DNA of 64,000 bases, from NCBI GenBank assembly GCA_017558005.1, contig JAFYWN010000007.1, forward strand, positions 9,374 to 73,373, written 5' to 3'. Position numbers and translations under genes: made by a program. Below the pieces are notes generated by a model that was not told the DNA's origin, ran no database searches, and saw only the letters and a program-made list of their open reading frames with translations. Of this stretch, positions 34,192-50,078 are shown piece by piece. This DNA comes from Kiritimatiellia bacterium (GTDB lineage Bacteria; Verrucomicrobiota; Kiritimatiellia; RFP12; DVOR01). The stretch's first letter is position 1; each line of letters starts with the position of its first letter.

Positions 34192-34803
34192 TTAGCCGAT
34201 GATGACTCGACGTCCCTCAATGCGCAAACGCCCCGCTGCGAGATGACGGAGGGCTTCTGGGAAGGCGATGTGCTCCTGCACTTGAATGCGCGCATGGAGC
34301 GTCTCAGGGGTGTCCCCCTCCTCCACAGGCACGCACTTCTGCACAATAATCGGTCCGCTATCGGTGCCCGCATCCACAAAGTGTACCGTGCATCCCGCCA
34401 CCTTTGTGCCATAATCAAGTGCTTGCTTCCAAGAGTGCAAGCCTGGGAAGGCTGGCAAAAGTGCAGGATGGATGTTTAAGACGCGATTGGGGAAGGCAGC
34501 CAAAAGGCCTGGCTTCACAATACGCATAAAGCCTGCGAGCACCACGGTGTCTGCGCCTGCTTCCTTCATAATGCGAATGTATTCTTGTTCGGCTTCGCCA
34601 TCCAGCTTCGTCTTAAACGGTGCGCAGGAGACATAGCGTCCCGGCAAACCGTGCTTGGCCGCGCGCTCAAGAATCTTCGCATCTGGCACGTCTGCCAAGA
34701 CGCACACAATTTCTGCATCCAAAGTTCCAGCTTCAATCGCGTCCACGATGGACTGCATATTGCTTCCAGAACCAGAACCCAATACTGCAAGCTTCAATTT
34801 CAC
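34192..34803 (-). CDS. purN: Phosphoribosylglycinamide formyltransferase PurN.
   Basis: The motifs LAVLGSGSGSNMQ and NIHPALLP are present. A GTG start has a GGAGG RBS 7 nt upstream. The start overlaps the cmk stop (GTGA). Confidence 0.85.
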   Translation of the reverse strand: MKLKLAVLGSGSGSNMQSIVDAIEAGTLDAEIVCVLADVPDAKILERAAKHGLPGRYVSCAPFKTKLDGEAEQEYIRIMKEAGADTVVLAGFMRIVKPGLLAAFPNRVLNIHPALLPAFPGLHSWKQALDYGTKVAGCTVHFVDAGTDSGPIIVQKCVPVEEGDTPETLHARIQVQEHIAFPEALRHLAAGRLRIEGRRVIIG

Positions 34804-35519
34804 TTTGTTTCCTCCGTGGTTGCAGCCGGGGTCTTCCAATCTTCAGGCAGTGCATCAATCACGGTCTGCACCACTTGTTCCAACGTCAAATAGGTCGAAT
34901 CAATCGCCACCACGCCATCTGCCTTACGCAGCGGAGCGCATGCACGCGAAGAGTCAATGCGGTCACGTGCCAAAAGCGATTCCTTCACCGCTTCCACGTC
35001 CTGATTGGCGATACCCTTCTGCACTTCTTCGAGTTGGCGACGGGCCGCACGCACCGCCGGATCTGCTTCGAGGTAGAAACGTGCAGGCGAGTCTGGGAAG
35101 ACGGCCGTGGTAATATCGCGACCTTCGATAATCAGATTGCCAAAACGGGTGAGGCTGCGAAGTCCTGCGGTAATCTTTTCACGCACAGCAGGCACCGTTG
35201 CCACAGGAGAGGCATGGGCATTAATGCGCGGTTCACGCAGTTCCTTGTCGGGGCGAATTCCACCCACTTCATAGACCACGCGACCATCTTCTGCCTTACA
35301 GTCGATTGCCAAATCCTTGGCCAAAGCGGCCACGGCTTCTGGATTAGCCGTATCCACGCCCTGCTCCAAGCACTGCCACGTCACAATGCGATACAGAGCA
35401 CCAGAGTCAACGTGAAGGTAACCCAAACGGCGGCCCACCTCCTTGGATACGGAGGATTTACCGGCACCACTGGGGCCATCAATAGCGATTACGCGTGCGG
35501 AAGGATTTTCTGTTGTCAT
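34800..35519 (-). CDS. cmk: Cytidylate kinase domain, in frame with ftsH with no stop between.
   Basis: The P-loop IAIDGPSGAGKSS and a cmk-like remainder are present. It is preceded in the same frame by ...[12 protein letters not shown] with no intervening stop. Confidence 0.8.
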   Translation of the reverse strand: MTTENPSARVIAIDGPSGAGKSSVSKEVGRRLGYLHVDSGALYRIVTWQCLEQGVDTANPEAVAALAKDLAIDCKAEDGRVVYEVGGIRPDKELREPRINAHASPVATVPAVREKITAGLRSLTRFGNLIIEGRDITTAVFPDSPARFYLEADPAVRAARRQLEEVQKGIANQDVEAVKESLLARDRIDSSRACAPLRKADGVVAIDSTYLTLEQVVQTVIDALPEDWKTPAATTEETK

Positions 35520-37529
35520 AGTCTGCTGCTCCTCTTCTGCCGAAAGACGCTTCACTTCAGGCTTGATTCCCGTTTGAATCAAACGCTCCACGTCGCGACC
35601 GTCGGCGGTTTCCACTTCTAAAAGATACTCAACTAAAAGTTCAAGTTTGTCACGATTCGCGCCAATGATTTCCTCACCACGGCGATATGCTGCTTCCACG
35701 AGCTGCGTCACTTCTTCATCAATTGCGCGCGCAGTGGCTTCGGAGTGATCCTGTTTGCGACCAATTTCTCGACCGAGATAGATCTGCTCTTCGTTATCCC
35801 CGAAGGCTTGGAAGCCAAATCGTTCGCTCATGCCATAGGCGCAGACCATCTGACGAGCCAGGCGGGTCGCCATCTTAATGTCTTGCGATGCACCAGTCGA
35901 GCGTTCGCCCGTAAAATACTTTTCGGCGATACGCCCGGCCGTCAAGACCACGAGCATATCCTTCATTTCATTCTCAGTGCGATTCAAAACGTCTCGCTCA
36001 GGCAGGGTCATCGTTGCACCCAGTGCGCGACCACGCGGGATGATTGTCACTTTGTGCAAGGGTTCCGTGTGCTCCAAAAGCACCTGCGCCAAGGCATGAC
36101 CACCTTCATGCCACGCCGTAATGCGGCGATCCTTATCGGCCATCGTGTGCGAACGACGTTCACGGCCCCACAGGACCTTGTCGCGCGCCTCTTCTAAGTC
36201 GGCATGAGTCACCTTTGTGCGACGAGCACGTGCCGCCAATAGTGCCGCTTCATTCAGCAAGTTGGCGAGGTCTGCACCAGAAAAACCTGGCGTACCGCGC
36301 GCAACGCGTTCCAAATCCACGTCTTCGCCCAACTTCACCTTATCGGCGTGCACCTTCAAAATCGCCACACGCCCCTCGACCGTGGGCAAGTCAACGACAA
36401 TCTGGCGGTCGAAACGGCCCGGGCGCGTCAATGCGGGGTCAAGCACGTCCACACGGTTGGTCGCTGCCATGACAATCACGCCACTATTGCCCTCAAAGCC
36501 ATCCATCTCCACGAGCATCGCATTCAACGTCTGTTCGCGTTCGTCATGCCCACCGCCGATGCCGGTAAAGCGCGTACGGCCAATCGCATCAATTTCGTCA
36601 ATGAAGAGGATACACGGCGCATTCTTCTTGGCCTGATCAAACATGTCGCGCACGCGGCTCGCGCCGACGCCCACAAACATTTCCACAAAGTCAGAACCCG
36701 AAATGGAGAAGAAAGGCACCTCTGCTTCACCTGCGATTGCCTTCGCGAGCAACGTCTTACCCGTGCCAGGAGGCCCCATCAAGAGAACACCTTTCGGCAC
36801 CTTACCACCCACCGCTTCAAAGCGCGCAGGCTCCTTCAAGAAATCAACAATTTCCTGCACCTCTTCCTTCGCCTCATCCACGCCAGCGACGTCCTTGAAG
36901 CGAATCTTCGCATCTTCCTTGTTCATCATCTTGGCGCGTGATTTACCAAAGGCAAAGGGGCCATCATTGCCACCGCCCATTCTGCGCATGAAGAGCACGT
37001 AAAAGAGCACAAAGAAGAGAATGATTGGCAGAAGCGAAACCATAATCGGTCCCCACCAACTGCGATTATTCTCTTGAATCGTGCGCACACCAGCCTGCGC
37101 CAAACGCGTCTCGAGCCCTTCAGTGTCAAGCAGATTCAGCTTAAAGGATTCACCCTGTGCCTTCGGGTCAACTTGCGCGCCGTCCGCAGTAGGCTTGGGC
37201 AACCACTGCCCTTGCAAAAAGGTCTCATCTTCTCCTTCTCGGATTAACTTCACCTCTGCAAGTGCCGCATTTCCCTTCACGCCCCCTGCTTCATCTTTGA
37301 CGACACCCGCCTCAACGCGTTGCCAGAAATCCAACTGCGAAAGCGGGGCCTCCGCTTTACTCAGGTTTAATCCCTCGCCACCGCCATTGAACAAGGCAAT
37401 CAAAGAGAAGATAAAGACCGCCAAAAGAACCCACACCATCACAGGTGCGCGCCAATGGGGTTTCTTATCCTTGTTATCGGGGGTATTCTCTTTTTTTCCG
37501 GGATTCGGCTTCTTTTCGTCTTTCGACAT
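35520..37529 (-). CDS. ftsH: ATP-dependent zinc metalloprotease FtsH, fused read-through into cmk.
   Basis: It has two N-terminal TM segments, AAA+ motifs (GPPGTGKT, the DEIDA Walker B, the second region of homology) and the HEGGH zinc motif. Start at MSKDEKK has a GAGGAG RBS. Confidence 0.9.
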
Positions 37530-37530
37530 C

Positions 37531-38466
37531 TTAGCTCCTCTGAACTTCGCGTCCCTTTTCCTGCGAGACGAGAATTTCAAACATTTGATCATTTTGCTTC
37601 TTACAGGCACCCAAAATCAACCCCACGCCATAGGAAAGCAAACCCGCCATGGCGAGGAAGCCGGAGAAGTTCAACGTCGGCTGACGCGGCACTTCGCCGA
37701 TCTTAAAGTATTCAATCAACACCGGCACAAACAATGCCATTGCGCAGAGCAATAACACCGTACCGACGACTCCAAAGAAGAACTCCGGACGATAAAAACG
37801 GAAGAGATTGAAAATCGTCTTCAGTACGCGAATACCATCGCTCACAGTGTTCAACTTCGAGACACTGCCCTCAGGACGATCGCGATACTGCACCGGCACT
37901 TCAATCAAGCTCATACGCTTATCAATCGTGTGCAGCGTCATCTCGGTTTCAATCTCAAAGCCCTGCGCCAAAACTGGGCAACTCTTCACGAAGAGACGGC
38001 TAAATGCACGATAACCCGTCATCACGTCATTCACACGCTGGCCCCACAAAAGGCGAATCAACGTGCAGACCAACGTATTCCCGAAATTATGTCCAGGGCG
38101 CTTATTCTCCTGCATGTACGTTGACGAGAGACGGTCACCATTGACCATATCCGCCTCGCCATCAAGGACAGGCTTAATCAACTTATGCACCTCATCTGCC
38201 GGATAAGTGTCATCAGAGTCCACCATCACATAGACATCTGCATCCACCTCCTGGAACATACGACGCACCACATGGCCCTTACCCTGTTGCGGCACGCGAC
38301 GAACGAATGCACCTGCAGCCTGAGCCAAGTCCGCAGACCCGTCAGAACTGTTATTGTCATAAACCCAAATATCCGCATCCGGCAACTCCGCGCGAAAATC
38401 CCGCACCACCTTCTCAATCGTCAAGGCTTCATTGTAACAAGGCAACAATACGGCGACCTTTGGCAT
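37531..38466 (-). CDS. GT2-family glycosyltransferase (dolichyl-phosphate mannosyltransferase-like).
   Basis: The N-terminal blocks VAVLLPCYNE and VYDNNSSDGS, the DSDD motif and C-terminal TM helices are present. An AGGAGG RBS precedes MPKVAV. Confidence 0.8.
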   Translation of the reverse strand: MPKVAVLLPCYNEALTIEKVVRDFRAELPDADIWVYDNNSSDGSADLAQAAGAFVRRVPQQGKGHVVRRMFQEVDADVYVMVDSDDTYPADEVHKLIKPVLDGEADMVNGDRLSSTYMQENKRPGHNFGNTLVCTLIRLLWGQRVNDVMTGYRAFSRLFVKSCPVLAQGFEIETEMTLHTIDKRMSLIEVPVQYRDRPEGSVSKLNTVSDGIRVLKTIFNLFRFYRPEFFFGVVGTVLLLCAMALFVPVLIEYFKIGEVPRQPTLNFSGFLAMAGLLSYGVGLILGACKKQNDQMFEILVSQEKGREVQRS

Positions 38467-38707: not shown

Positions 38708-39045
38708 GCCTAACGGCATGGATGGTGGCTTTGCCACAGGACTGCCAGTGTGGGGGTCTCCACGAGTCGCACAGTCATGCACGCTGCGTCGCACGGGCAC
38801 ATATCCGTGCTCCGCCAGCGTGCGCTTGTCTCTTCTTACTCCTCTCTTCTCACTTCTTACTACAAGGGCGCAGCCGCTTAACTGGGGAATATGCGCTCGA
38901 GCACGAAGTGCTGAGAAACAGGCAACTCAAGTGAGCTTAGCGAACGAAACTTAGAACTTGTGGCGTAGCCACCCCGTGGACTCTAAAATTCGTATAAATT
39001 CGTAAAATTCGTGGTTAAAATCCCGTGCGCGAAAAGTTCACTTTT

Positions 39046-39537
39046 TCCATTTTTTCATCGATTTTTCGCTTGTTGAAAACTTTTTTTAGTTATCAACAAG
39101 TTATCAACAATTCACATTTCACGACGCAGTTTTTTGAAATTTTATGGCAGATCAACGGATTTTCGGCGTTTTTGCTCAACCTTGTTAAAAATGCATAACT
39201 CATTGAGTAGTATGGAGATAAAGCAAAAATAGAGCAAAATTAACTCCGCTACAGTCGCTTCCTTGCGAAATTTTGGACCCAGAGTGATAGAAAAGTTATC
39301 AACAAGTAGCAGCTTTTTGGGAGAAAGCTAAAGCAATTCCGGGTCAATATCAGCGAAATTGGTGAGCAGTATCAGCGAAATTGATGAGCAATATCAGCGA
39401 TTTCGGGTGACCAAAATCAGCGATTTTCAGGCGGAATTTTCGCTTACTTATCGCGAAATTTTCGCTTACCTGGTTCGGTAGAGTTGACTACTTGGCTCCG
39501 GTTTGCTACACTTTTAATGTGTGTAGAGAGAAGAGAT
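39046..39537. repeat. Copy B of the ~500-bp repeat element, inverted relative to copy A.
   Basis: It is the reverse complement of 5375-5874. Iterons TCAGCGAAATT occur at 39350, 39372, 39394 and 39417. TTATCAACA occurs at 39088, 39099 and 39296. Imperfect 32-50-bp direct repeats lie 216 bp outside each end (38795-38826 and 39754-39786). Confidence 0.8.
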
Positions 39538-39874
39538 TGGCTTCGCCATGTTTCGGGGTTTTGGGTTCTGGGTTCGGGGTTCGCGCCTGCGGCGCAGGAC
39601 GACGTGTGTTTAGGTTTTCCACGGTGGAGCACAATCTTGACGTTCGCTACCGCTCTCTGCCTCTCCTTGCGGAGATGGCCGACGGATTCGGCACTCCTCG
39701 CTACGGACAGGCGTCCTACTGCGGGCCCTCACCGTTGTCACGCTGCGAGAAATGGGCACATATCCATTTCTTCGCCAGCGTGCGCTCACCAAGATCTAAG
39801 GCGGCGTCCCTTTGCCCCTTCGTATTCGCCGCCCAACCAGGAACGCTCAACTGCAAGGGTATTGAATGGATAAA

Positions 39875-39919
39875 GAAAAACCCGCATAGCAGAACTCCAC
39901 GACAGAACTGCTATGCGGG
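39875..39919 (-). terminator. Rho-independent terminator on the minus strand at the left edge of the AT-rich island.
   Basis: A 12-bp perfect stem (CCCGCATAGCAG/CTGCTATGCGGG) with a 15-nt loop is followed on the minus strand by TTTTTCTTTAT. Confidence 0.55.
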
Positions 39920-40227
39920 ACCCAAACCAAAGGATTCCTTTGAAAAAAGGCAACCAATGATGGCGGGAAGCATATCAAAAGAATGGTAAAAGTGAAGCCA
40001 GAATTTTAAAAATTATTGCCTTTGAGTAATTACGGCAATGAGTTGTGATTTTTCCATAAAAAACCGATGCACCTATTAATTAATGTAAGAAACCCTCTTT
40101 CGGTTATGGGATAATTTTGATAGAATACTTTACTGTAAGGCTTGCAGAAAATGGCTTGCATTTTAGAGGCTATTTTGCCTGCAAAATGAGTGAATTTTGA
40201 GAGGGAGCATGCGAAAACGCATGTAGG

Positions 40228-41214
40228 TTGATGACTGAGATTAAAGAGTTTCATTTATTTGCAGGTATTGGTGGCGGGATTTATGGTGGTGAATTATTAG
40301 GCCACAAATGCTGTGCAGGTGTTGAAATCATGCCATATGCACAAAAAGTACTCAAGCAACGTCAAGAGGATGGTTGGTTGCCTAAATTCCCGATTTATGG
40401 TGACTTGTGTGTATTGGATGGAACGCCGTTTAAAGGTAAATTTGACATCCTTTGTGGCGGTTTCCCGTGTCAGGCGTTTAGTACTGCAGCACATGGGAAA
40501 AATATCGCGGCAAAGAATCTTTGGGGTGAAATGCTCCGTTTTGTAAAAGAGTCCGATGCTCCAATTGTATTTGGTGAAAATGTTGTTTTACGTGCAATTG
40601 AACAAGCAAAAGTTGACTTAGAAGCGATTGGTTACAAGGTTGAGCGTATTCGTTTGAGTTGTTCTGATATTGGTGCTGACCATCAACGTAACCGTTTTTG
40701 GGTACTGGCAGTAAAAGATTATGCTGTTTTTGAAAAAATTGCAGCCCATTTGAAACAATTGCCGAAGTTGACTGGTGATTGTTGGACGAAGAGTCCTTCT
40801 GAGACGGGTGCCCCTGTTGAAGTGAAGGTGGGTGACCGCCGAGATCAATTACTTGGTGTCGGTAATGCACAGTCTCCGTTTGTTGCAGCTACAGCATTTC
40901 GTATCTTGGTGAATCGCCATTTGAATCATATAGATAGGCGGTCTGAACTCGTCTCGGCTAAAGAATTGGATGCAGTGTTTGAGAAGCGTGAGACGTGGAT
41001 TCAGAAGACGTTTAATAACATTGGACTTGTACATACTCCGACAACAATGGCTAATTATGCATGTCCTTCAATGATGAAACATCAAGGGTGTCGTAATTTT
41101 ACTGTTGTTTTTGGGCGTCCACAACCTGAAAATGCCGAATACTTAATGGGCTTTCCTTTAGGCGCGAGTTCGCCAAATCCATTGCCTATAACAAACTTCA
41201 AGCGTTGGAGATGA
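40228..41214 (+). CDS. DNA (cytosine-5)-methyltransferase.
   Basis: The m5C MTase motifs are present: I (LFAGIGG), IV (GFPCQAFS), VI (ENV) and VIII (QRNRFW). The protein is 328 aa. Confidence 0.85.
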   Translation: MMTEIKEFHLFAGIGGGIYGGELLGHKCCAGVEIMPYAQKVLKQRQEDGWLPKFPIYGDLCVLDGTPFKGKFDILCGGFPCQAFSTAAHGKNIAAKNLWGEMLRFVKESDAPIVFGENVVLRAIEQAKVDLEAIGYKVERIRLSCSDIGADHQRNRFWVLAVKDYAVFEKIAAHLKQLPKLTGDCWTKSPSETGAPVEVKVGDRRDQLLGVGNAQSPFVAATAFRILVNRHLNHIDRRSELVSAKELDAVFEKRETWIQKTFNNIGLVHTPTTMANYACPSMMKHQGCRNFTVVFGRPQPENAEYLMGFPLGASSPNPLPITNFKRWR

Positions 41215-41561
41215 TTATGAGTGCAGGTCGGATTTTAGAGTCATTGGGTAAAAGGCGTATGAAGCCTTGGACTTATCCAAATTCATATGCAATCATTAAA
41301 CCCGCGAGTTTAATGGCTGAGCAATCAACAAATAGAGATTCGGCTTCTTGGAAAAAAGCTGAGTATATCGTAATTGATGAAGTTCAGTATGGCCAGGGGA
41401 AACACCTAATTCCTGCATGGTGTTATTTCACTGCGGCTGATCCAGATGGTGCGGCAGGCTTTCAAAAGTTGTTGATTAACATTGGCGGTGGCCAATATGC
41501 TATGTATGACAATATGGGGTGTGGTCCCAAAATCGGTACTTTACGTGAATTGGTAAAGTAA
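41205..41561 (+). CDS. Small protein paralogous to the N-terminal domain of the downstream McrB-like protein.
   Basis: WKKAEYIVIDEVQ and AADPDGAAGFQKLLINIGGGQYAMYDN align to WRTAEYIVVDEFNQ and DADPDKHHKIQKMLIRTGNNQYDLYNH of the next ORF. Its start overlaps the MTase stop. Confidence 0.6.
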   Translation: MEMIMSAGRILESLGKRRMKPWTYPNSYAIIKPASLMAEQSTNRDSASWKKAEYIVIDEVQYGQGKHLIPAWCYFTAADPDGAAGFQKLLINIGGGQYAMYDNMGCGPKIGTLRELVK

Positions 41562-41601: not shown

Positions 41602-43962
41602 ATGGGGCGCGGTGGAAAGGCAAAAATTAGTGCAGCCGTTTGTGAAATGTTTGAACGGCTTGGAATTAAACGATTAGAGGCTTGGACACATTCAAACTCT
41701 TTTTCTGGGGCAACAATTTCTAATTTTACGTCACCGGATAACCAAAATCGTGCTAATCGCGGTCAATCAAATTGGAGAACCGCAGAGTATATTGTAGTTG
41801 ATGAGTTTAACCAAGAGAGCGAAGAGATTGATCAGAGCGAAGAGATTGATCTTTCTATATGGAAAGAGATTACGGATGCTGACCCTGACAAACATCATAA
41901 AATTCAAAAAATGTTAATTCGTACAGGTAATAATCAGTATGATTTGTATAATCATGATGCGAATAAAATTGCGTCAGGAAGTTTAGAAGAAATTGAGAAC
42001 TTTATACGAATAAACAATACACAATTACAATCAAAACAATTAGTGGTTCAAGACCGCTTATTGGTTGCTTTACAGTTGTTTACAACGAAACGTGGTTCGT
42101 ATCAATTTAACCCTGTGTTACCTAACGAAGAGGTTACTGCAGAAAATTATTCTTACGAACATCTTGATAATTGGAAGGCCTTTTGCACGGAAGTGCAGGA
42201 GTCTCCATCGGATATTTCGGTTTGTTTCGCATCCAAGGTGGTCAAAGACCTTGGGATGCTCCCATCACTTCTAACACGTTTTTTAGTTCGTTTGGCGCCT
42301 TCAGTCTACGCTGCATGTTCAGAGCATACGGCAGAGGCATTGTATTTTCTTGAGTTGACGAAAACGAAGGTGTTACCTGAGGATTTGACAGCTGATGCGT
42401 ATGAGTCTTCTAAGGCAGTGCAGACGCAGATTCGTGATAAGATGCGTAAGATGAAGATTCTTTCTCAAGAGGGAAAAGAGGCGAATTATCTCACACTAGC
42501 AGAGTTTTTGTGGTTTGTTAATGACAACAAGGATTTGATCGAGGGTAAAGTTATGGAAAAGCAAATTAAGTCGGTTAATAAAACTAAGGTTAAAGAAGAT
42601 TCTCGCAAAGAGAAGCGTTTGAAGTGTAAGACTGCGGACGATGTTTTGATTTTCCGTTTAATGGCAACATTGCGCACGAAGCCTTTTGCCATTCTTGCGG
42701 GGCACTCGGGTACGGGTAAGAGCCGTTTGGTGCGTAAGTTGGCATACATGACGTGTAATGTGGAAGAACTTCAGAATACAGAGAAGAATTCCCCAGAGAA
42801 CTTTTGCATGGTGCAGGTGAAGCCGAATTGGCATGACTCTATGGATTTATTGGGGTATCGCAGTGCATTTGAAGATAAAAGTTATGTGACGACGGATGTG
42901 GTGAAGTTTATTTGTAAAGCGTATGCCTATCCTGAAACACCCTTTTTCCTTTGCTTAGATGAGATGAATCTTGCACCTGTTGAGCAATACTTTGCTGAAT
43001 TCTTAAGTGCGATGGAGTCGTTGCGAGAACTTAAAAGTTCTGACGAGGAGACATCTTCTGACGAGGAGACATCTTCTGACGAGAAGACATCTTCTGACGA
43101 GAAGACATCTTCTGACGAGGAGACATCTTCTGACGAGAAGATGTCTTACACCTCGGATACGCTTTTTACGTTGACTGACGATGAATTAAAGTCTCAAAGT
43201 AAGTTGTTTGATTTAGGGTGTGAAACCGGTGTGGGGCAAACGTATTTGACGAAACGTGGCGGTGTGACGATTCCAAAGAATCTCTTTGTCGTTGGCACTG
43301 TGAATATGGATGAAACCACATGCCAATTCTCTCGTAAGGTGCTTGACCGTGCGATGACGATTGAAATGACGGATGTAAACTTTGCCAATTTCGGCAAAGT
43401 GGCCGATCCAAGTTTTACGGACCTGCTTGCAGAAGAGATTGTTCAACTTTTGCTCAATGGAGACATTAAGGTTGAAAGCCTTGATACCGAGGATGTTGCT
43501 ACTGACTCAAAACTGTGTAAGCTTCAGCAACGTTTAGCGAAGACCTCTTTTGCGATTGCATATCGTTTTGCGAAGGAATACACGTTGTTTAAGAGAGCTA
43601 TTGAGGAATTTAAAAAACATATTTCAGGATCCCCTCAAAAATCTGAGGATGAATCTTCAGAAGTTGCTGAGACACCTGAAGACTCCAAGCCTTCAGAGGC
43701 CTCAAATTCTGGAATGCGTGAGACTGTGGACAACTTAGATGCCTTAGATCAAATGGTCTTAATGAAAGTGTTGCCACGTATTATGGGGAGAACTGAAGAC
43801 GTTAAGGCAATATTCACAGGGGTGCGCGATTTTAATCCTGAGGGTTCAAAAGAGCCTATGTCGGATTCACTTTTAGGCATTTTTGGGAAAACGTCTGAGT
43901 CAGGCAAGAAGATGATTGAGATTATGGAGCGAGGTGGCTCACATTTGACTTTTTGGCCGTAA
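41602..43962 (+). CDS. McrB-like AAA+ GTPase with a variable N-terminal domain and an acidic tandem-repeat insertion.
   Basis: The Walker A ILAGHSGTGKSRL and Walker B FFLCLDEMNL are present. McrB-like blocks NWHDSMDLLGY and VVGTVNMDETT are present. A GGAAGGA RBS precedes MGRGG. Confidence 0.7.
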   Translation: MGRGGKAKISAAVCEMFERLGIKRLEAWTHSNSFSGATISNFTSPDNQNRANRGQSNWRTAEYIVVDEFNQESEEIDQSEEIDLSIWKEITDADPDKHHKIQKMLIRTGNNQYDLYNHDANKIASGSLEEIENFIRINNTQLQSKQLVVQDRLLVALQLFTTKRGSYQFNPVLPNEEVTAENYSYEHLDNWKAFCTEVQESPSDISVCFASKVVKDLGMLPSLLTRFLVRLAPSVYAACSEHTAEALYFLELTKTKVLPEDLTADAYESSKAVQTQIRDKMRKMKILSQEGKEANYLTLAEFLWFVNDNKDLIEGKVMEKQIKSVNKTKVKEDSRKEKRLKCKTADDVLIFRLMATLRTKPFAILAGHSGTGKSRLVRKLAYMTCNVEELQNTEKNSPENFCMVQVKPNWHDSMDLLGYRSAFEDKSYVTTDVVKFICKAYAYPETPFFLCLDEMNLAPVEQYFAEFLSAMESLRELKSSDEETSSDEETSSDEKTSSDEKTSSDEETSSDEKMSYTSDTLFTLTDDELKSQSKLFDLGCETGVGQTYLTKRGGVTIPKNLFVVGTVNMDETTCQFSRKVLDRAMTIEMTDVNFANFGKVADPSFTDLLAEEIVQLLLNGDIKVESLDTEDVATDSKLCKLQQRLAKTSFAIAYRFAKEYTLFKRAIEEFKKHISGSPQKSEDESSEVAETPEDSKPSEASNSGMRETVDNLDALDQMVLMKVLPRIMGRTEDVKAIFTGVRDFNPEGSKEPMSDSLLGIFGKTSESGKKMIEIMERGGSHLTFWP
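43036..43146 (+). repeat. Six 18-bp tandem repeats encoding (SSDEET/SSDEKT)n inside the McrB-like gene.
   Basis: The direct nucleotide repeat TCTTCTGACGAGGAGACA occurs 6 times with G/A variation. Confidence 0.8.
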
Positions 43963-46224
43963 GTGTGTGAAAGACTGATGAAACAAAAAAAAGTTTTTGC
44001 GTTTGAGATTCCAGGGCTGTTGAGCTTCTGCGTCACAGGGAATAACACTGGACGCGTGGAGCGTTATTGTAAGCGTATTAAGTGCACATCTCAAGACGAT
44101 AAAGCGAAGGTTTTGTTTCAGGCAAATCGCAAAGGGACGTGGCATTTTTTTGAACCGAAAAGTGAGACTGTTGAGGAGAATGTTACTGCAAGCGCTTTAC
44201 CTGTCTTTTATGAAACGACTTATCAAGTAAAATGCAAGTTTGAGCGCAAGGTGAAAGATGTGCGTGTGTCGCACAAATTGGTGAGCGTGGCGGACGAGTT
44301 CTACTATGACGAAGAGGATTGTTGTCTTTCGGGGCCGCTCAATTTCATTAATACACCCGGTAAATTTGCCTTTGAGATAAATATTGAGATGGCAACAGGG
44401 GAAACGACTACATTGAAATTAGAGTGGTGGGTCGTCTCCGAGAAGATGAATGTTATTGAGGATTATAGTGCCATTGTAGAAAAGGTGTCTTCAGTGAAGC
44501 CCGAATTGGTGTATGCCTTTTTGGCTAAGACCATGAATGAGAGTGGGCTTTCTTCTGAAAAGGGACAGTCGGATGCAGTGTGGTATGATATTTTTCAAAC
44601 GCTTGTCTCAACGTATCGTTCGGCTTGTGAACATGTGGTTCATAATCCGCATTTAAGGTATGTGGAGCATGAGCAGTATTTGCGTGTGAACCAAATACGG
44701 CGATGGACGCCAGCGTTAATGCAACGTTACCAACAGACGGATAAGTCTGTACGTGAAATGCGTCATTTTCACGCAACAGAAGTCGTCCCAGAGGTGGATA
44801 CTGTTGAAAATCGGTTTGTGCTGTTTACGTTAACAAAGATTGCAGAACGATTGCGAGATTTCGCAAAACGTTGCCGAGAAGAGGGTGGCGGTAAGATTAG
44901 TGAAGACTTCATCAAGCAGATGGAGGTTGATGCGACATCATTTGAAGAGATGACTTATCATCCATTCTTCCGTGAGGTGGGGCATTATAATGGTGTTGTG
45001 CAAGAGAGTTTGGCACTTCTTCGAAAGCGTGGATATGCCGAGATTTACGACACATGGTTGAAATTAAAACATTCGTTAGACCTCACTGGAAGCGGCATTG
45101 ATGTGGGAAATAATCCCATTTGGAAGTTGTATGAGTTCTGGTGCTTCTTGATGATTCGAGATTGGTTAATGGAGCGTTATCCAGATCCCAAGGGCTCATT
45201 AGGAGATGTCGTAGAAACATCGGATATTTTTGAAGACCCATATGATGAAGCCACAGGAGAAACGAAACAACCTGCTGGAAGTAAAAAGTGTGAGTATGTA
45301 TTTAAAGATGAAATGGGCAATCGTGAGATTGTGCTCACCTATCAGCTTTCGTATGGTCATGGAAAGAATGGCTCTGAGGATGTGTCAGGGCATCTTTCTT
45401 ATGTGGTAGAGCAGATTCCTGATATTGTGATGACAATTAAGGACTTAGGCATTGCACAGAATGAGCATACCTATCTCTTTGATGCGAAGTATCGCATTAT
45501 GCAGTATCCATCGGCAACAGACCATCAAAAAGACGCATCTCCTCATGCTGCAATAAATGACATGCATCGTTATCGTGATGCGATTCTTTATCGTAGTCAA
45601 AAAAGCGGGAAGCTTTCGCGTGAAGTGATTGGTGCGTATGTACTTTTTCCTGGACGGCTGGGAGAGTCTTACGATTATACAGAAATCATTAGAAATGAGA
45701 ATATCGGTGCGATCCCTCTCTTACCTGGTGAAGAGGGGACGAAAGCACTATTAGCATTCCTTGAAGAGATTATTACCCGTGGCACACCAAAAGAGCACCT
45801 TGAAAAGGTAATCCCCACGCGTGGTACTTCGGCGGTCTTGGGTGACGATATGCCGTTAGGATTCCCCAAAGGGGAGAATATTATTCGCATTTCCTCAACA
45901 GAGAAACGGCCATACTACGAGTATTTTAATGAATTAAGAGGCTCAACAATACCAACATTCTTCTATTTGACGCAATTGGCATGTGAATATGATGGTAATA
46001 CTTCTGAGCAAAATGCCTCCCAAAAACAGATGGTCATCATTTGGGCAGAGACGGATAAACGTCTTCCCATTCGAGTATTGTTGGGAAAATATCATGGATG
46101 TCAGAAATACGATAAAGAATCTATTTACAGATTAGATAATAATTTTTCGGGTGGAAATTCATTAGAAGTCGCTTTGGAAAAGAGTGATAAGGTTTATGTT
46201 TGGGAGATTATAAGTGTGGAGTGA
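43963..46224 (+). CDS. McrC-like nuclease subunit (PD-(D/E)xK).
   Basis: It lies immediately downstream of and abutting the McrB-like gene. Its C-terminal region carries a PD...D-x-K arrangement (EQIPDIVMT ... LFDAKYR). The protein is 753 aa. Confidence 0.6.
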   Translation: MCERLMKQKKVFAFEIPGLLSFCVTGNNTGRVERYCKRIKCTSQDDKAKVLFQANRKGTWHFFEPKSETVEENVTASALPVFYETTYQVKCKFERKVKDVRVSHKLVSVADEFYYDEEDCCLSGPLNFINTPGKFAFEINIEMATGETTTLKLEWWVVSEKMNVIEDYSAIVEKVSSVKPELVYAFLAKTMNESGLSSEKGQSDAVWYDIFQTLVSTYRSACEHVVHNPHLRYVEHEQYLRVNQIRRWTPALMQRYQQTDKSVREMRHFHATEVVPEVDTVENRFVLFTLTKIAERLRDFAKRCREEGGGKISEDFIKQMEVDATSFEEMTYHPFFREVGHYNGVVQESLALLRKRGYAEIYDTWLKLKHSLDLTGSGIDVGNNPIWKLYEFWCFLMIRDWLMERYPDPKGSLGDVVETSDIFEDPYDEATGETKQPAGSKKCEYVFKDEMGNREIVLTYQLSYGHGKNGSEDVSGHLSYVVEQIPDIVMTIKDLGIAQNEHTYLFDAKYRIMQYPSATDHQKDASPHAAINDMHRYRDAILYRSQKSGKLSREVIGAYVLFPGRLGESYDYTEIIRNENIGAIPLLPGEEGTKALLAFLEEIITRGTPKEHLEKVIPTRGTSAVLGDDMPLGFPKGENIIRISSTEKRPYYEYFNELRGSTIPTFFYLTQLACEYDGNTSEQNASQKQMVIIWAETDKRLPIRVLLGKYHGCQKYDKESIYRLDNNFSGGNSLEVALEKSDKVYVWEIISVE

Positions 46225-46374: not shown

Positions 46375-47985
46375 ATGGCGAGTCATCTTCATTTTCAAAC
46401 AGCTTTCTCGGTAAAGCCCACGGGGGTGCATTCTGCGCGAGAATTGTTTTCGAAGCTGCAAACAGTTATTTTTAATTGGGTTTGTCAAAAGCAGAATAAA
46501 CATGGTTATAAGCAAATAGATATTGATGCATTCAAGAAGAAGCTTGAAGTGCAGGGGTTTGTCAATGGTGCGAAATTGAAAACCGTTTCTTGCTTTATGG
46601 ATGATGAGATATCTTGGGCAATGCGTTTTGAGGAGCTTGACACCTCGGATGCATCGCGTCCATGGACAACAGAGGTGGGGATGTATTTAAGTGATGAAAA
46701 TGGAGCTGTTAACTTTTCCTATACAACATACTATAGGACGTCGGTGGCGGAGGAGTTTGAAAAGCCTATTAAGCCAACATACAAGTTTCCACATTTGATT
46801 AAATTAATTTTGGAAATACCAGGAACACAAGTCTATTTTAGCGGAGGATTACCCTTAACGTCATCCTACACTAAAATTAGGACTTCACAAGAGGCATTAA
46901 ACTTTATTTCCGCAGCGAATGATGGGAATCGAGAGGATTCGCTTGTTTTAGTAATGGGAGCTTCGCGTGAAAATGAAATGCGGGCAAGAAATCTAGCACA
47001 GACACTTTATGGAAAGGTGTGCGTCTTTCTTGCAGATAGAACGCCAGAAGTGCTTGAGACATTTTGTAACAAAAAACATACTTTTAACCTTGGTCAAATA
47101 AGGATTTATTATCCACGTAAAAGTCGAGGGTCAAAAGACTACTCAAAAGATAAATTAAACGAGCTTGACAATGCAATAGCACAATTATTAAAAATCCCTG
47201 CGATAAAGACTCCGACTTCGGTTCGAACCCTTTCAGATGTGATGCATCGTCGCCTATTCATAAAGCTTACTGGGCTTAATGAGTTTTTTAATAAATTAAA
47301 AAAGGCTGCGCAGAGTGAACTGAAGCGCGAAGAGGTTGATATGGATTTTATCAATCTGGTGCAAGAGACAAATGAAGAACTGCAAAAGGAAAATGAGAAG
47401 TTGCGAAATGAAATAGAGACTATTGAAGCGGTCGCAGAATCAGAAATGAAAGAATTGAGAGACGTGTTTGCGAAGAAAGAAGCTGAGTATTTGGCTCAGA
47501 TTAGAAGTCAAAAAAAGACACCTTCGCTACCACGTGAATTTCCTGCCAAACTTACAGATGTCTTAGCGTGGGCTAAACTTTTGCCGAATCTAATGATTGC
47601 ACAGAGTGCTCATGCTTCAGCTAAGAAGTATGAGCAATTCAAAGAGTTTAGTGTAGCATGGGATATGCTACTTGCACTGAATAGCGTTTTGTTTAGGTTA
47701 AAATTTACTGAAAATAAAAGTAATTTCTGGACAGAATTTCAGGATCGTACAGGTTATGAATTTGCGAAAGGTGAAGGACCTAAGACAAATAGTGATACTG
47801 CTTTGGTCAAGCTTCGTCAATTCCAGCATAATGGGAAATCATATGAAGGGTGGATGCACTTAAAGTATGGAAATCAACCCAATAAGCTTCTTCGTATTCA
47901 TTTTGATTTTGATGAAGAATTGCGAAAAATTGTAGTGCTTCATGTGGGAGATCATATCCCTAATGCCACAACCGGTAAACTTTAA
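46375..47985 (+). CDS. Hypothetical coiled-coil protein, paralog A (536 aa).
   Basis: A long ORF in the AT-rich island is homologous over its full length to the next ORF. It has a central coiled coil and a conserved C-terminal module (HLKYG...LRIHFDFDEELRKIVVLHVGDH). Confidence 0.65.
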   Translation: MASHLHFQTAFSVKPTGVHSARELFSKLQTVIFNWVCQKQNKHGYKQIDIDAFKKKLEVQGFVNGAKLKTVSCFMDDEISWAMRFEELDTSDASRPWTTEVGMYLSDENGAVNFSYTTYYRTSVAEEFEKPIKPTYKFPHLIKLILEIPGTQVYFSGGLPLTSSYTKIRTSQEALNFISAANDGNREDSLVLVMGASRENEMRARNLAQTLYGKVCVFLADRTPEVLETFCNKKHTFNLGQIRIYYPRKSRGSKDYSKDKLNELDNAIAQLLKIPAIKTPTSVRTLSDVMHRRLFIKLTGLNEFFNKLKKAAQSELKREEVDMDFINLVQETNEELQKENEKLRNEIETIEAVAESEMKELRDVFAKKEAEYLAQIRSQKKTPSLPREFPAKLTDVLAWAKLLPNLMIAQSAHASAKKYEQFKEFSVAWDMLLALNSVLFRLKFTENKSNFWTEFQDRTGYEFAKGEGPKTNSDTALVKLRQFQHNGKSYEGWMHLKYGNQPNKLLRIHFDFDEELRKIVVLHVGDHIPNATTGKL

Positions 47986-48004: not shown

Positions 48005-49690
48005 ATGCCAAAATTAAATGACAAAAATATTAATTATCACGCTTCATTCGTGATTGATCATCAAGATTCAAAGCAGACGTTTCATGCCATTCTTGAAATT
48101 TTAAAGAAATGGCTGAAGGAGAAAGAGCGTAGTTTTAAGAATCCTAAGATGAAAGATGTGTATGGGGTATTCTCTACATTTGATCAATCTCAATCTGCAA
48201 CATTTGGTAGCAGAACTGAAACGCGACATTTGAAGATTCAATCCGCAGAAAATAAGGAAAAGAAATTATGGGGATTTGAATATTCGCATCCTCAATTTAA
48301 CAATCGCAAGTCAATGCTGATTCGGTATTGGTATGTAGAAGTCTATATCACATCCTTTAAAAATACAAATAATGTCGCGGTGTATGTCTGTGTTTCATAT
48401 AGTTGGAATCGAACAAAGATGCTTGAAGAAGATGATGCACGTCTTCCAACGCCCACAGTTCCAGGCTTTATGAAAAACTTGGTAAAGACATTTAATCTTC
48501 ATATAGAGGGATGTCCGTTCAGTTTCTCGCCTAAACCTTATCTTTTAAACACAAAAGAAGATGTGGAGCCATTTATTGATTTGCTTAGGGATGATGATCG
48601 AAAAACATTTATTTTACTTTCAACATATTCGCCTACTTACCAAGCTGCAGAAGACTTTTTAAAACGATTGGCGGAAAAGGTATTAGGGAAAGCATTATTT
48701 TTTCACGTAGATCCTACAAAGGAGGCGTTTAAGTATCTAAAACGTGCAAATGTTTTTGAGAAGCTTGAATCGAATACCATCTACATTATTTCAGAGATGA
48801 GGAAAGGCCGTTTAGGAATTCAATGGATATTATCACCTCCTGGTCCTACTGAGGCTTATTTTGATAATACATCTAACCGATTGCAAGAGTTCTTTTATCG
48901 AAATCAGATTGTACTTGCTGATGGCGCAATAACCTCTTTTTCTGCAATTTTTTCTGCGGATTTGTTTGAGCGTTTTCAAAAGGAGCGTGATGCTAAACTG
49001 TCTGCGCAAGGCGCTAAAGAAGAGGCAATTGGCAATGCTCATGCTGCGGAGGAATTGTTTGAAGATTTATACGTGCGTAACGAGAATACAGTGAATGAAA
49101 ACAAGACCCTTAAAGATGAGAATAAGGATTTAAAGAATAGACTCGCACATGAGCAACGAGAACACAAGCGAAAAGAGAATGAACTAAAAACTCAAGTTGA
49201 TAACGCAGAGTCTCGTCTTGTAACAGCTTTCTACAACTCTGCGCAATGTAAAAAGTTGCGAGATAAAGTGGAGTGTTTAAAAGAGATTTTATCCCCAAGG
49301 CTTGTATTTACAGATAAATCACTCTCAAGTTTAGAGCGGTGTACAAGAGAAAATGAAGCAGAATTGATAGAGGGATTAATAGCCTTGTATCATATTTTGT
49401 GGCCAATTCATATTAAGGGCGCAATTGGACAACGTATAGAAGATGTCTTTAAGAGTACAAAATTTAAGTATGCGCCTCAAGAAAATCAGGAAACAATGGA
49501 TGTTCTAGACTATCGAAAAGATCGTACGGTCACGTATAATGGTAAAGATTATGTTTGCGAGAGTCATCTTAAGTTTGACAAAAATGGACGTATCTATTTT
49601 AAGTTTTCAGAGGAGTTAAAGAAGATAGTGTTATGTGTTCTTGGAGTTCACCTAGATACTGCAGGCACAAAACGTAAAAGTATTAATTGA
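48005..49690 (+). CDS. Hypothetical coiled-coil protein, paralog B (561 aa).
   Basis: It is the tandem paralog of 46375-47985. The C-terminal module HLKFDKNGRIYFKFSEELKKIVLCVLGVH is shared. No known domain is recognised. Confidence 0.65.
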   Translation: MPKLNDKNINYHASFVIDHQDSKQTFHAILEILKKWLKEKERSFKNPKMKDVYGVFSTFDQSQSATFGSRTETRHLKIQSAENKEKKLWGFEYSHPQFNNRKSMLIRYWYVEVYITSFKNTNNVAVYVCVSYSWNRTKMLEEDDARLPTPTVPGFMKNLVKTFNLHIEGCPFSFSPKPYLLNTKEDVEPFIDLLRDDDRKTFILLSTYSPTYQAAEDFLKRLAEKVLGKALFFHVDPTKEAFKYLKRANVFEKLESNTIYIISEMRKGRLGIQWILSPPGPTEAYFDNTSNRLQEFFYRNQIVLADGAITSFSAIFSADLFERFQKERDAKLSAQGAKEEAIGNAHAAEELFEDLYVRNENTVNENKTLKDENKDLKNRLAHEQREHKRKENELKTQVDNAESRLVTAFYNSAQCKKLRDKVECLKEILSPRLVFTDKSLSSLERCTRENEAELIEGLIALYHILWPIHIKGAIGQRIEDVFKSTKFKYAPQENQETMDVLDYRKDRTVTYNGKDYVCESHLKFDKNGRIYFKFSEELKKIVLCVLGVHLDTAGTKRKSIN

Positions 49691-50015: not shown

Positions 50016-50058
50016 ACAACCCCACCCCGCCACGAACATTGTTCGGGCGGGTTTTTCT
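50016..50058 (+). terminator. Rho-independent terminator at the right edge of the island.
   Basis: The stem CCCGCCACGAACA/TGTTCGGGCGGG is followed by TTTTTCTTTCGTTT. Confidence 0.45.
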
Positions 50059-50078
50059 TTCGTTTCTAAGGATGTGAA

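Follow-up and report, generated by a model that had tools for sequence, protein, structure and literature searches.

LlaI and BsuMI are methyltransferase-linked cassettes of three genes encoding a DNA-binding protein (R1), an McrB-like motor (R2) and an McrC-like nuclease (R3); R1 binds R2 in trans, and targeting is site-specific and blocked by methylation. In LlaJI, R1 is a B3 domain fused to the McrB-like NTPase and binds a specific unmodified sequence, R2 is McrC-like, and there are two 5-methylcytosine (m5C) methyltransferases. A further branch of McrB proteins has its signature loop reduced to NxD, mostly with E or D after it, and is frequently associated with methyltransferases; in the parts of Bell et al. 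(2024, eLife, PMC11090510) used here, no NxD-type McrB is characterised, and methyltransferase-associated McrBC systems are common but largely uncharacterised, their logic being "surprising for a Type IV system". Here we analyse a locus of this kind in a 64,000-nucleotide stretch (the window) of a contig from a Kiritimatiellae metagenome-assembled genome (MAG). It encodes a Dcm-type C5-cytosine DNA methyltransferase, a small free-standing protein (FREE), an McrB-like AAA+ NTPase and an McrC-like nuclease. FREE is a paralog of the N-terminal domain of the McrB-like protein itself (FUS2), and we tentatively propose, at slightly less than an even chance, that it is the detached, trans-acting, methylation-sensitive specificity subunit of a methyltransferase-linked McrBC-type system of the NxD branch.

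With LlaI and BsuMI the locus shares the methyltransferase, a separate gene for a putative DNA-binding reader just upstream of the motor, and the McrC-like partner. However, R1 has about 329 residues and two domains, one of them ERCC4-like, whereas FREE is a single domain of 114 residues. No relation between FREE and LlaI.R1 could be detected by PDB sequence search or by Foldseek, entries of the ERCC4 family included, although the LlaI.R1 structure possibly lies outside the PDB copy searched. Furthermore, the motors of LlaI and BsuMI lack an N-terminal domain, whereas the motor described here bears the NxD signature and an N-terminal extension of about 335 residues that includes the paralog of the free reader. 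With LlaJI the locus has in common an m5C methyltransferase and an McrBC-like motor and nuclease in one cassette, and its Fibrobacter-type relatives share the LlaJI layout; on the other hand, Foldseek finds no B3 match for the reader, there is one methyltransferase instead of two, and a free-standing reader is added. The locus thus resembles LlaI/BsuMI in its detached reader and methyltransferase, and LlaJI in its methyltransferase-gated McrBC, but it is a member of neither, because the motor has an N-domain, FREE is no homolog of R1, no B3 fold is detected and the methyltransferase is single.

The comparison with Escherichia coli McrBC is of a different nature. In both, the AAA+ motor shows a signature loop of the McrB type and bears a reader at its N-terminus, the partner combines DUF2357 with PD-(D/E)xK, and there is a truncated polypeptide, which in E. 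coli is McrB-S, a motor-only isoform that modulates McrBC (PMC12707154). However, McrB-S is the motor half, made by internal initiation in the same gene, whereas FREE is the reader half with a gene of its own. In addition, the E. coli system is modification-dependent and has no methyltransferase, and its reader is DUF3578 (ADAM, SRA-like), unrelated to the domain found here. As judged from their sequences, the McrB-like and McrC-like proteins form a McrBC-type system of the NxD branch, which they resemble in the NxD(E) signature, in the association with a methyltransferase (here two genes upstream) and in the inserts within the GTPase domain, as far as the branch is portrayed in the portions of PMC11090510 at hand. 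The same portions of that census mention neither a free-standing reader paralog nor this domain family, and defer the methyltransferase-associated branches to a later publication. In the open-access literature searched, we likewise found neither an account of the domain family nor one of a free reader that is a paralog of its motor's N-domain.

The free-standing protein and its domain family

An earlier, sequence-only reading of the window had described the small open reading frame (ORF) as a detached duplicate of the N-terminal domain of the McrB-like protein. The homology is borne out. BLASTP aligns the small ORF with the 786-residue product of 41602-43962 over 116 residues (query 10-116, subject 16-131) at 33% identity and 52% positives (E=7e-18), and both peptide matches quoted in that reading lie inside the alignment. 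The Smith-Waterman score of the pair is 151, as compared with a mean of 30.7, a standard deviation of 4.4 and a maximum of 59 in 2000 shuffled controls (z=27.6). Equally, the small protein carries no AAA+ module, as had been stated: searches of Pfam, PADLOC and NCBIfam returned no match of any kind.

The ORF had been taken to start at TTG 41205 (118 residues), in overlap with the methyltransferase stop, and to belong to the same transcript. Most likely, the true start is ATG 41217 (114 residues), because a GGAG ribosome-binding site lies 6 nt upstream of it, an equivalent ATG is present in the orthologues, and the deposited record (MBR5591315.1, "hypothetical protein") contains the same 114 residues. 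The overlap is therefore lost, since FREE begins 2 nt past the methyltransferase stop (41212-41214) and ends 40 nt short of the McrB start; the spacing from the methyltransferase is nevertheless of the operon-like kind that a shared transcript would have.

A profile of the domain was searched against 1.84 billion representatives and gave 59 clusters at E<=1e-3; of these, no fewer than three (P0014, P0034, P0047) are spurious repeat proteins. The profile covers about 113 residues and reads N-R-x4-W-x2-A-E ... W ... Q-K-L ... Y-x-Y-D, the near-invariant positions being T19, N39, R40, W45, A48, W68, Q83, L85 and Y97. The family hidden Markov model (HMM) matches both copies of this locus, FREE with E=1.7e-40 and FUS2 with E=8e-31 (residues 22-143 of the ORF read from TTG 41572, which are residues 12-133 from ATG 41602). 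In most members the domain forms the extreme N-terminus of an McrB-like AAA+ protein of 440-680 residues, while a minority are proteins of about 113-118 residues; in a collection of 5.8 billion proteins we found six free-standing orthologues of FREE (113-117 residues, 48-95% identity), and more occur in metagenome contigs. No model for the domain was found in Pfam, PADLOC or NCBIfam. The domain thus appears to define an unannotated family of putative readers, delimited by this locus and some 30 related contigs.

The fold of the domain was approached with two AlphaFold2 models, built from alignments of 8 sequences (predicted local distance difference test, pLDDT, 71) and 41 sequences (pLDDT 77). 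Both predict a mixed alpha/beta fold, a beta-sheet with helices. Foldseek searches of the two models (PDB twice, BFVD once) returned nothing under E=0.1, the best match having E=0.16 and a template modelling (TM) score <0.42, and a sequence-profile search of the PDB yielded only a chance match (E=1.9). At the moderate confidence of these models, the domain is not detectably of the DUF3578/ADAM/SRA, YTH, EVE/PUA/ASCH or B3 type; the sequence-only reading had named DUF3578, YTH, EVE/PUA and SRA as folds to compare, and for none of them did Foldseek give a match. A B3 fold as in LlaJI, which was our initial idea, was dropped, as no B3, EcoRII or BfiI entries appeared among the Foldseek matches to the PDB. 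A PD-(D/E)xK fold, suggested by a D...QK pattern, was rejected by eye since the K is not conserved in the family; Foldseek gave it no support either.

Histories of the two copies

The relationship between FREE and FUS2 was examined in a neighbour-joining tree of 51 domains with 300 bootstraps. The core free-standing proteins are monophyletic in 217 of the 300 replicates, and FREE groups with the adjacent fused copy in none. A recent local tandem duplication is ruled out by this tree. The earlier word "duplicate" is misleading: to judge from the tree, the two are old paralogs, FREE belonging to an orthologous lineage of its own, which evolves slowly and accompanies the methyltransferase, while FUS2 falls among the N-domains of further long NxD McrB proteins. 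The core clade has a conserved length (112-117 residues), its own ribosome-binding site and stop, and 43-95% identity. Two further free-standing placements, L013 and the L016/P0040 clade (the latter with the same four-gene operon), lie elsewhere in the tree, and free-standing copies seem to have more than one origin (L numbers designate the contigs of the census described below).

The two copies evolve at very different rates. Between this locus and L001, identity is 92% for the methyltransferase, 95% for FREE and 63% for the fused N-domain (the AAA+ part is left out, being split by an insertion sequence, IS, in L001); between L028 and L027 it is 74% for FREE, 35% for the fused N-domain and 71% for the AAA+ part. 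Among orthologues, FREE ranges from 43 to 95% and FUS2 from 29 to 63%. Distant pairs are mostly saturated at synonymous sites, and the comparisons usable for nonsynonymous (dN) and synonymous (dS) substitution rates are those of this locus with L001 and with L007. Against L001, FREE has dN=0.023 and dS=0.359, giving dN/dS=0.063, close to the 0.075 of the methyltransferase, as compared with 0.43 for the N-terminal part of McrB. The latter is a mosaic in this pair: divergent sequence with raised dS takes the place of the reader core (residues 20-100) and of the linker. FREE is under strong purifying selection and is a real gene, not debris. A frozen free reader beside a hypervariable fused paralog in one operon offers a natural experiment on sub-functionalisation in defence systems.

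These data bear on the idea that FREE is a non-functional relic, either the leftover 5′ fragment of a former reader-McrB fusion or a decaying recent tandem duplicate. Such an origin could be argued from the fused forms that adjoin the same methyltransferase in other loci (L008-10, L021-26), from the effectors after FREE, which have clearly been swapped, and from the seemingly multiple origin of free-standing copies. However, a dN/dS of 0.06, a monophyletic core clade of constant length with its own translation signals, the invariant loop motif, the absence of any bootstrap that joins FREE to its neighbour and a four-gene architecture that is kept all stand against it. The relic is largely refuted by selection and phylogeny, and we consider it very improbable.

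Related loci and the role of FREE

The census comprises 32 related contigs, several of them near-identical. In all loci with readable upstream sequence, the domain, free or fused, directly follows an orthologous Dcm-type methyltransferase (55-92% identity), the methyltransferase stop and the domain start usually overlapping or abutting; this linkage counts about 30 loci including near-identical contigs, hence far fewer independent lineages, and in L006 and L016 only the last few methyltransferase codons are readable. Two forms can be distinguished. In form A (Fibrobacter and related metagenome contigs; L008-10, L021-26) the methyltransferase is followed by the domain fused to an NxxD-type McrB, of which it is the sole N-domain (FUS1), and then by McrC. 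In form B the methyltransferase is followed by the free domain and then by a variable effector, of which four kinds were seen: (i) a long McrB of the NxD type, whose N-domain is a paralog, together with a DUF2357/PD-(D/E)xK McrC (this locus, L001-4, L014/15, L027, L028, L030-32); (ii) an McrB with a remotely homologous N-domain (L005, L007, L017, L019; hhalign 92.9%, E=3.6e-7); (iii) a long McrB whose N-terminus has no family-profile match at E<=1e-3 and no motifs by eye (L020); and (iv) a GmrSD-family enzyme without a reader (L006, L018; PF03235 E=2e-30). The loci of the first kind, together with L016 and probably L029, where the free copy is readable only at its C-terminal end, confirm that other McrB-like loci carry a detached paralog, as the sequence-only reading had wondered. 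All long NxD McrBs with a family N-domain that were checked have the methyltransferase and FREE upstream, and the four-gene architecture is kept down to 29% FREE identity. The gene orders point to the methyltransferase and FREE as a constant cassette behind which the effectors are swapped.

A loop of the domain distinguishes the copies. NRDSASWKKAE[YH] is identical in 11 of 12 core FREE proteins and in all seven form A fused domains, while FREE and FUS1 are only 36% identical overall; in the form B fused copies (FUS2) the same loop varies (NRGQSNWRTAE, NRDNTGWPCAE, NRPQSLWKMSL and others). Of the two, FREE has the look of the main reader, cognate to the methyltransferase, and the fused copy that of a divergent one.

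The argument for a specificity subunit runs as follows. The sequence-only reading had supposed that the domain recognises a DNA modification; since the system is methyltransferase-linked like LlaJI, LlaI and BsuMI, an unmethylated sequence is the more probable target. In form A the domain would have to direct the nuclease in a methylation-blocked way, comparable to LlaJI, because the system would otherwise attack its own host. In form B the reader carried by the effector is either hypervariable, unrelated or missing and so cannot couple the effector to the conserved methyltransferase, whereas FREE can. As FREE shares the form A signature loop and the tight methyltransferase linkage, it is the best candidate for the methylation-sensitive, nuclease-licensing reader. 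A DNA-recognition role is supported by where the family occurs: overwhelmingly it forms the N-terminus of McrB-like AAA+ proteins, and every characterised McrB homolog has its DNA-recognition module there (PMC7680126). For a detached reader acting in trans, R1 of LlaI and BsuMI sets a precedent. We suggest that the methyltransferase would mark host DNA at its target sequence and that FREE would bind the same sequence when unmethylated, that is on foreign DNA, through the conserved loop N39-R40...W45-K46-K47. This binding would license or recruit the downstream NTP-driven nuclease, composed of an NxD-type McrB hexamer and the McrC PD-(D/E)xK nuclease. The N-terminal paralog of the motor would then be a second, rapidly diversifying reader or a docking module, and not the methyltransferase-cognate reader. 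DNA binding, methylation sensitivity and communication with the effector are all presumed properties of FREE. Among the three roles that had been offered for a detached copy, a specificity determinant fits best; a competitor and a regulator are weighed below.

Several observations weigh against this proposal. The core family residues N, R, W and Q are retained in FUS2, which may therefore be a competent reader and make a second one redundant. The contrast in net charge at this locus (+4 for FREE, -11 for the fused paralog), which we count in favour of the proposal, is based on few sequences, and the family overall is not strongly basic. The AlphaFold models, of moderate confidence, match no known DNA-binding fold. 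Furthermore, in L001-L004 an IS1595-family transposase, together with about 2 kb of additional genes, interrupts the McrB-like gene (L001:8386-12839), while FREE and the methyltransferase are intact upstream, at the low dN/dS values given above. The insertion may be old or recent, and constraint despite a broken McrB fits a methyltransferase-tied function at least as well as a nuclease-tied one. Finally, the proposal requires FREE to work with effectors of unrelated structure (two McrB types and GmrSD), which is more easily explained if FREE acts on DNA only, competing or regulating there, or acts on the methyltransferase.

Action at the DNA level could take the form of attenuation. FREE would occupy unmethylated or hemimethylated cognate sites, or cap the N-domain of the motor, and thereby dampen restriction, allowing the host to survive establishment, replication and repair. 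FREE is a reader without a motor, for which binding without cleavage is the simplest activity, it is translated just ahead of the nuclease genes in the same operon, and no specific contact with the varied effectors would be required. A precedent is the truncated McrBC modulator McrB-S, reportedly described by Panne et al. in 1998, of which FREE would be the functional mirror image. However, attenuation demands that the effector carry its own methylation-sensitive reader for the same site, and GmrSD has none, the N-terminus in L020 is unrelated, and FUS2 is hypervariable with a different loop. It also leaves unexplained why FREE, and not FUS2, keeps the loop of the sole reader in Fibrobacter-type systems. 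On balance we hold an attenuator or competitor to be unlikely, though the likeliest of the alternatives.

Alternatively, FREE could act as a methylation-sensing transcriptional controller, similar to the controller (C) proteins of restriction-modification systems, which would bind a site in the control region of the operon and set the timing or ratio of methyltransferase and nuclease expression in response to the methylation state. A perfect inverted repeat, CATGCG-AAAA-CGCATG, lies 8 nt upstream of the methyltransferase start; it is unique in the window, had no match in 100 shuffles, and is possibly an operator or an RNA hairpin. Inverted repeats of different sequence occur at the same place in L008-10, L014, L017, L021-25 and L028 (for instance CCGTGATGC-AGAC-GCATCACGG in L028, GTGAAC-TC-GTTCAC in Fibrobacter and AACTTGC-GCAAG-GCAAGTT in L014), and as a group these could be operators, methylation-sensitive sites or translational hairpins. 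Such a role would be independent of the effector type, and there is elaborate transcriptional control in LlaJI and LlaI, the latter of which encodes a controller protein. On the other hand, the repeats are also present in Fibrobacter-type loci that have no free copy, and their sequences differ although the FREE loop is invariant. C proteins are small helix-turn-helix (HTH) proteins with a C-box upstream of their own gene, whereas FREE matches no HTH family at E<=0.1 nor any other Pfam family, and the sole upstream repeat precedes the methyltransferase gene. In addition, little space separates the genes, no promoter is evident between them, and the usual setting of the family is that of a targeting domain of the motor. 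We therefore regard a controller as improbable.

Action on the methyltransferase would make FREE its recognition or stimulatory subunit, or an S-like subunit that serves methylation and restriction alike, in the manner of Type I and Type III systems. FREE lies strictly next to the methyltransferase, in many cases with translational coupling, and is under a similar constraint that persists where the insertion sequence disrupts McrB. The Dcm profiles cover the methyltransferase only over motifs I-VIII (residues 8-166), and its C-terminal half is in this sense atypical. However, by eye about 130 residues separate motif VIII from the motif-IX-like ENAEYLMGFP, enough for a target-recognition region of its own. 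Over the same locus pairs the methyltransferase is far more conserved (70-74%) than FREE (43-46%), and no sequence similarity was found between the two. To our knowledge, C5-methyltransferases are not known to require a separate recognition subunit. We give this partnership slightly less credence than the controller, and a similarly small chance to mechanisms outside those listed here.

Returning to the specificity subunit, a wider proposal can be formulated, which we consider doubtful but somewhat less so than attenuation. The methyltransferase and FREE would constitute a portable "self-mark and mark-reader" cassette, built on an undescribed DNA-reader fold, that provides methylation-gated, sequence-specific targeting to unrelated nucleases (NxD McrBC, NxxD McrBC and GmrSD). 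Where the nuclease is McrBC, the effector would bring a second reader that diversifies rapidly, and the two would work side by side in a two-reader logic where a constant self/non-self check is combined with a variable target selector. Should FREE be a methylation-sensitive specificity subunit, this would explain how a modification-dependent-looking machine becomes a classical restriction-modification system, and would extend the "detached R1" principle of LlaI/BsuMI to a new fold and a new McrB branch. With its 114 residues, FREE would also be a very small candidate module for discriminating unmethylated from C5-methylated sites.

Layout of the operon and its island

The operon lies in a low-GC island at 39-50 kb of the window (36-46% GC as compared with about 52% in the flanks). 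On the forward strand it carries, in this order, the methyltransferase, small ORF, McrB-like gene, McrC-like gene and two HEC-07-like genes, which complete the defence island at the downstream end of the McrBC operon. The features are collected in Table 1.

Table 1. Coordinates of the features of the locus, in positions of the window.
Feature	Position	Strand	Details
Inverted repeat CATGCG-AAAA-CGCATG	40208..40223	+	perfect; 8 nt upstream of methyltransferase ATG (40231)
Dcm-type C5-cytosine DNA methyltransferase	40228..41214	+	328 aa from TTG 40228; probable start ATG 40231
GGAG, ribosome-binding site of the small ORF	41207..41210	+	6 nt upstream of ATG 41217, read from sequence
FREE, free-standing putative reader protein	41217..41561	+	114 aa; isoelectric point (pI) 9.1, net charge +4; loop motif NRDSASWKKAEY (aa 39-50)
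FUS2, fused paralogous putative reader domain	41602..42006	+	aa 1-135 of McrB-like protein; net charge -11, pI 4.7; loop NRGQSNWRTAEY
McrB-like AAA+ NTPase	41602..43962	+	786 aa: FUS2, variable linker of ~200 aa, AAA+ motor (aa ~336-786); ribosome-binding site AAGGGAAGGA upstream
Tandem duplication of 18 nt in FUS2	41816..41851	+	perfect; encodes SEEIDQ/SEEIDL; TRF score 72, 100% match
Tandem repeat of 18 nt, 5.8 copies	43038..43141	+	acidic, serine-rich (SSDEE/KT)n insert in AAA+ region between Walker B and NxD loop; TRF score 187; repeat family D1
NMDE, NxD(E) variant of McrB signature loop	43303..43314	+	GTVNMDETT; translation reads FVVGTVNMDETT
McrC-like nuclease	43963..46224	+	753 aa; DUF2357 + PD-(D/E)xK; PF09823 E=4.3e-36, PF04411 E=1e-28; start abuts McrB stop
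HEC-07-like paralog pair	46375-47985 and 48005-49690	+	adjacent, 23% identical to each other; PADLOC HEC-07 E=3e-29 (first gene), NsnC weakly

The methyltransferase matches PF00145 over residues 8-166 (E=1.8e-24) and TIGR00675 (E=4.6e-17), and the motifs FAGIGGG, GFPCQAFS, ENV and QRNRFW can be read in its translation. In its C-terminal part we noticed by eye a motif-X-like GNAQSP (at about residue 219) before the motif-IX-like ENAEYLMGFP (at about residue 300), soon after which the protein ends. This suggests a permuted order of the C-terminal motifs, and the arrangement is conserved in all orthologues seen.

The motor is matched by PF07728 AAA_5 (E=3.9e-6) and PADLOC PDC-M26A (E=1.4e-36), and also by the E. 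coli McrB chains 6hz4 and 6ut6 (E=4e-4 to 1e-3); the match to the McrB model NF008457 (E=4e-5) is far under the cutoff of that model. The Walker A motif reads GHSGTGKS. The 18-nt duplication in FUS2 partly accounts, through the repeated SEEID, for the negative charge of this domain, and L001 has a 6-residue alignment gap at the same place.

Between the small ORF and the McrB start there is no convincing terminator. Scans for promoters and terminators gave counts no better than shuffles (22 promoter sites, 25 expected), the host not being a sigma-70-consensus organism. Rfam and tRNA scans of the window gave no match and hence no tRNA-linked integration site, and tblastn of a plasmid collection gave no match.

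Repeats are found around the island. To its left, a pair of neighbouring direct-repeat segments, one of 27 nt (81% identical) and one of 17 nt (94% identical), together covering about 47 nt, is found twice at a distance of 959-960 nt (38780-38826 and 39739-39786). A perfect 14-nt inverted repeat (AAAGAAAAACCCGC at 39872-39885, GCGGGTTTTTCTTT at 50047-50060), of which about 0.3 are expected by chance, falls almost exactly on the two GC boundaries. Both may be insertion scars. A stretch of about 1.2 kb without a long ORF, also left of the island, contains a 22-nt unit (CAATATCAGCGAAATTGGTGAG-like; 39345-39470) that is repeated in tandem about five times and has an iteron-like look.

As for neighbouring genes elsewhere in the census, the distant four-gene locus of L014 has a HATPase_c gene and two genes of no assigned function before the operon and an AbiH gene after it (L014:134-2302 and 7882-8754); this arrangement recalls a remark on "two-component genes in NxD operons" in the portions of Bell et al. 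cited above. Further upstream in the window, on the reverse strand (34800-37610), a single ORF of 936 residues is, from its translation, an apparent fusion of FtsH (AAA+ and peptidase) with a C-terminal cytidylate-kinase-like region (IAIDGPSGAGKSS...).

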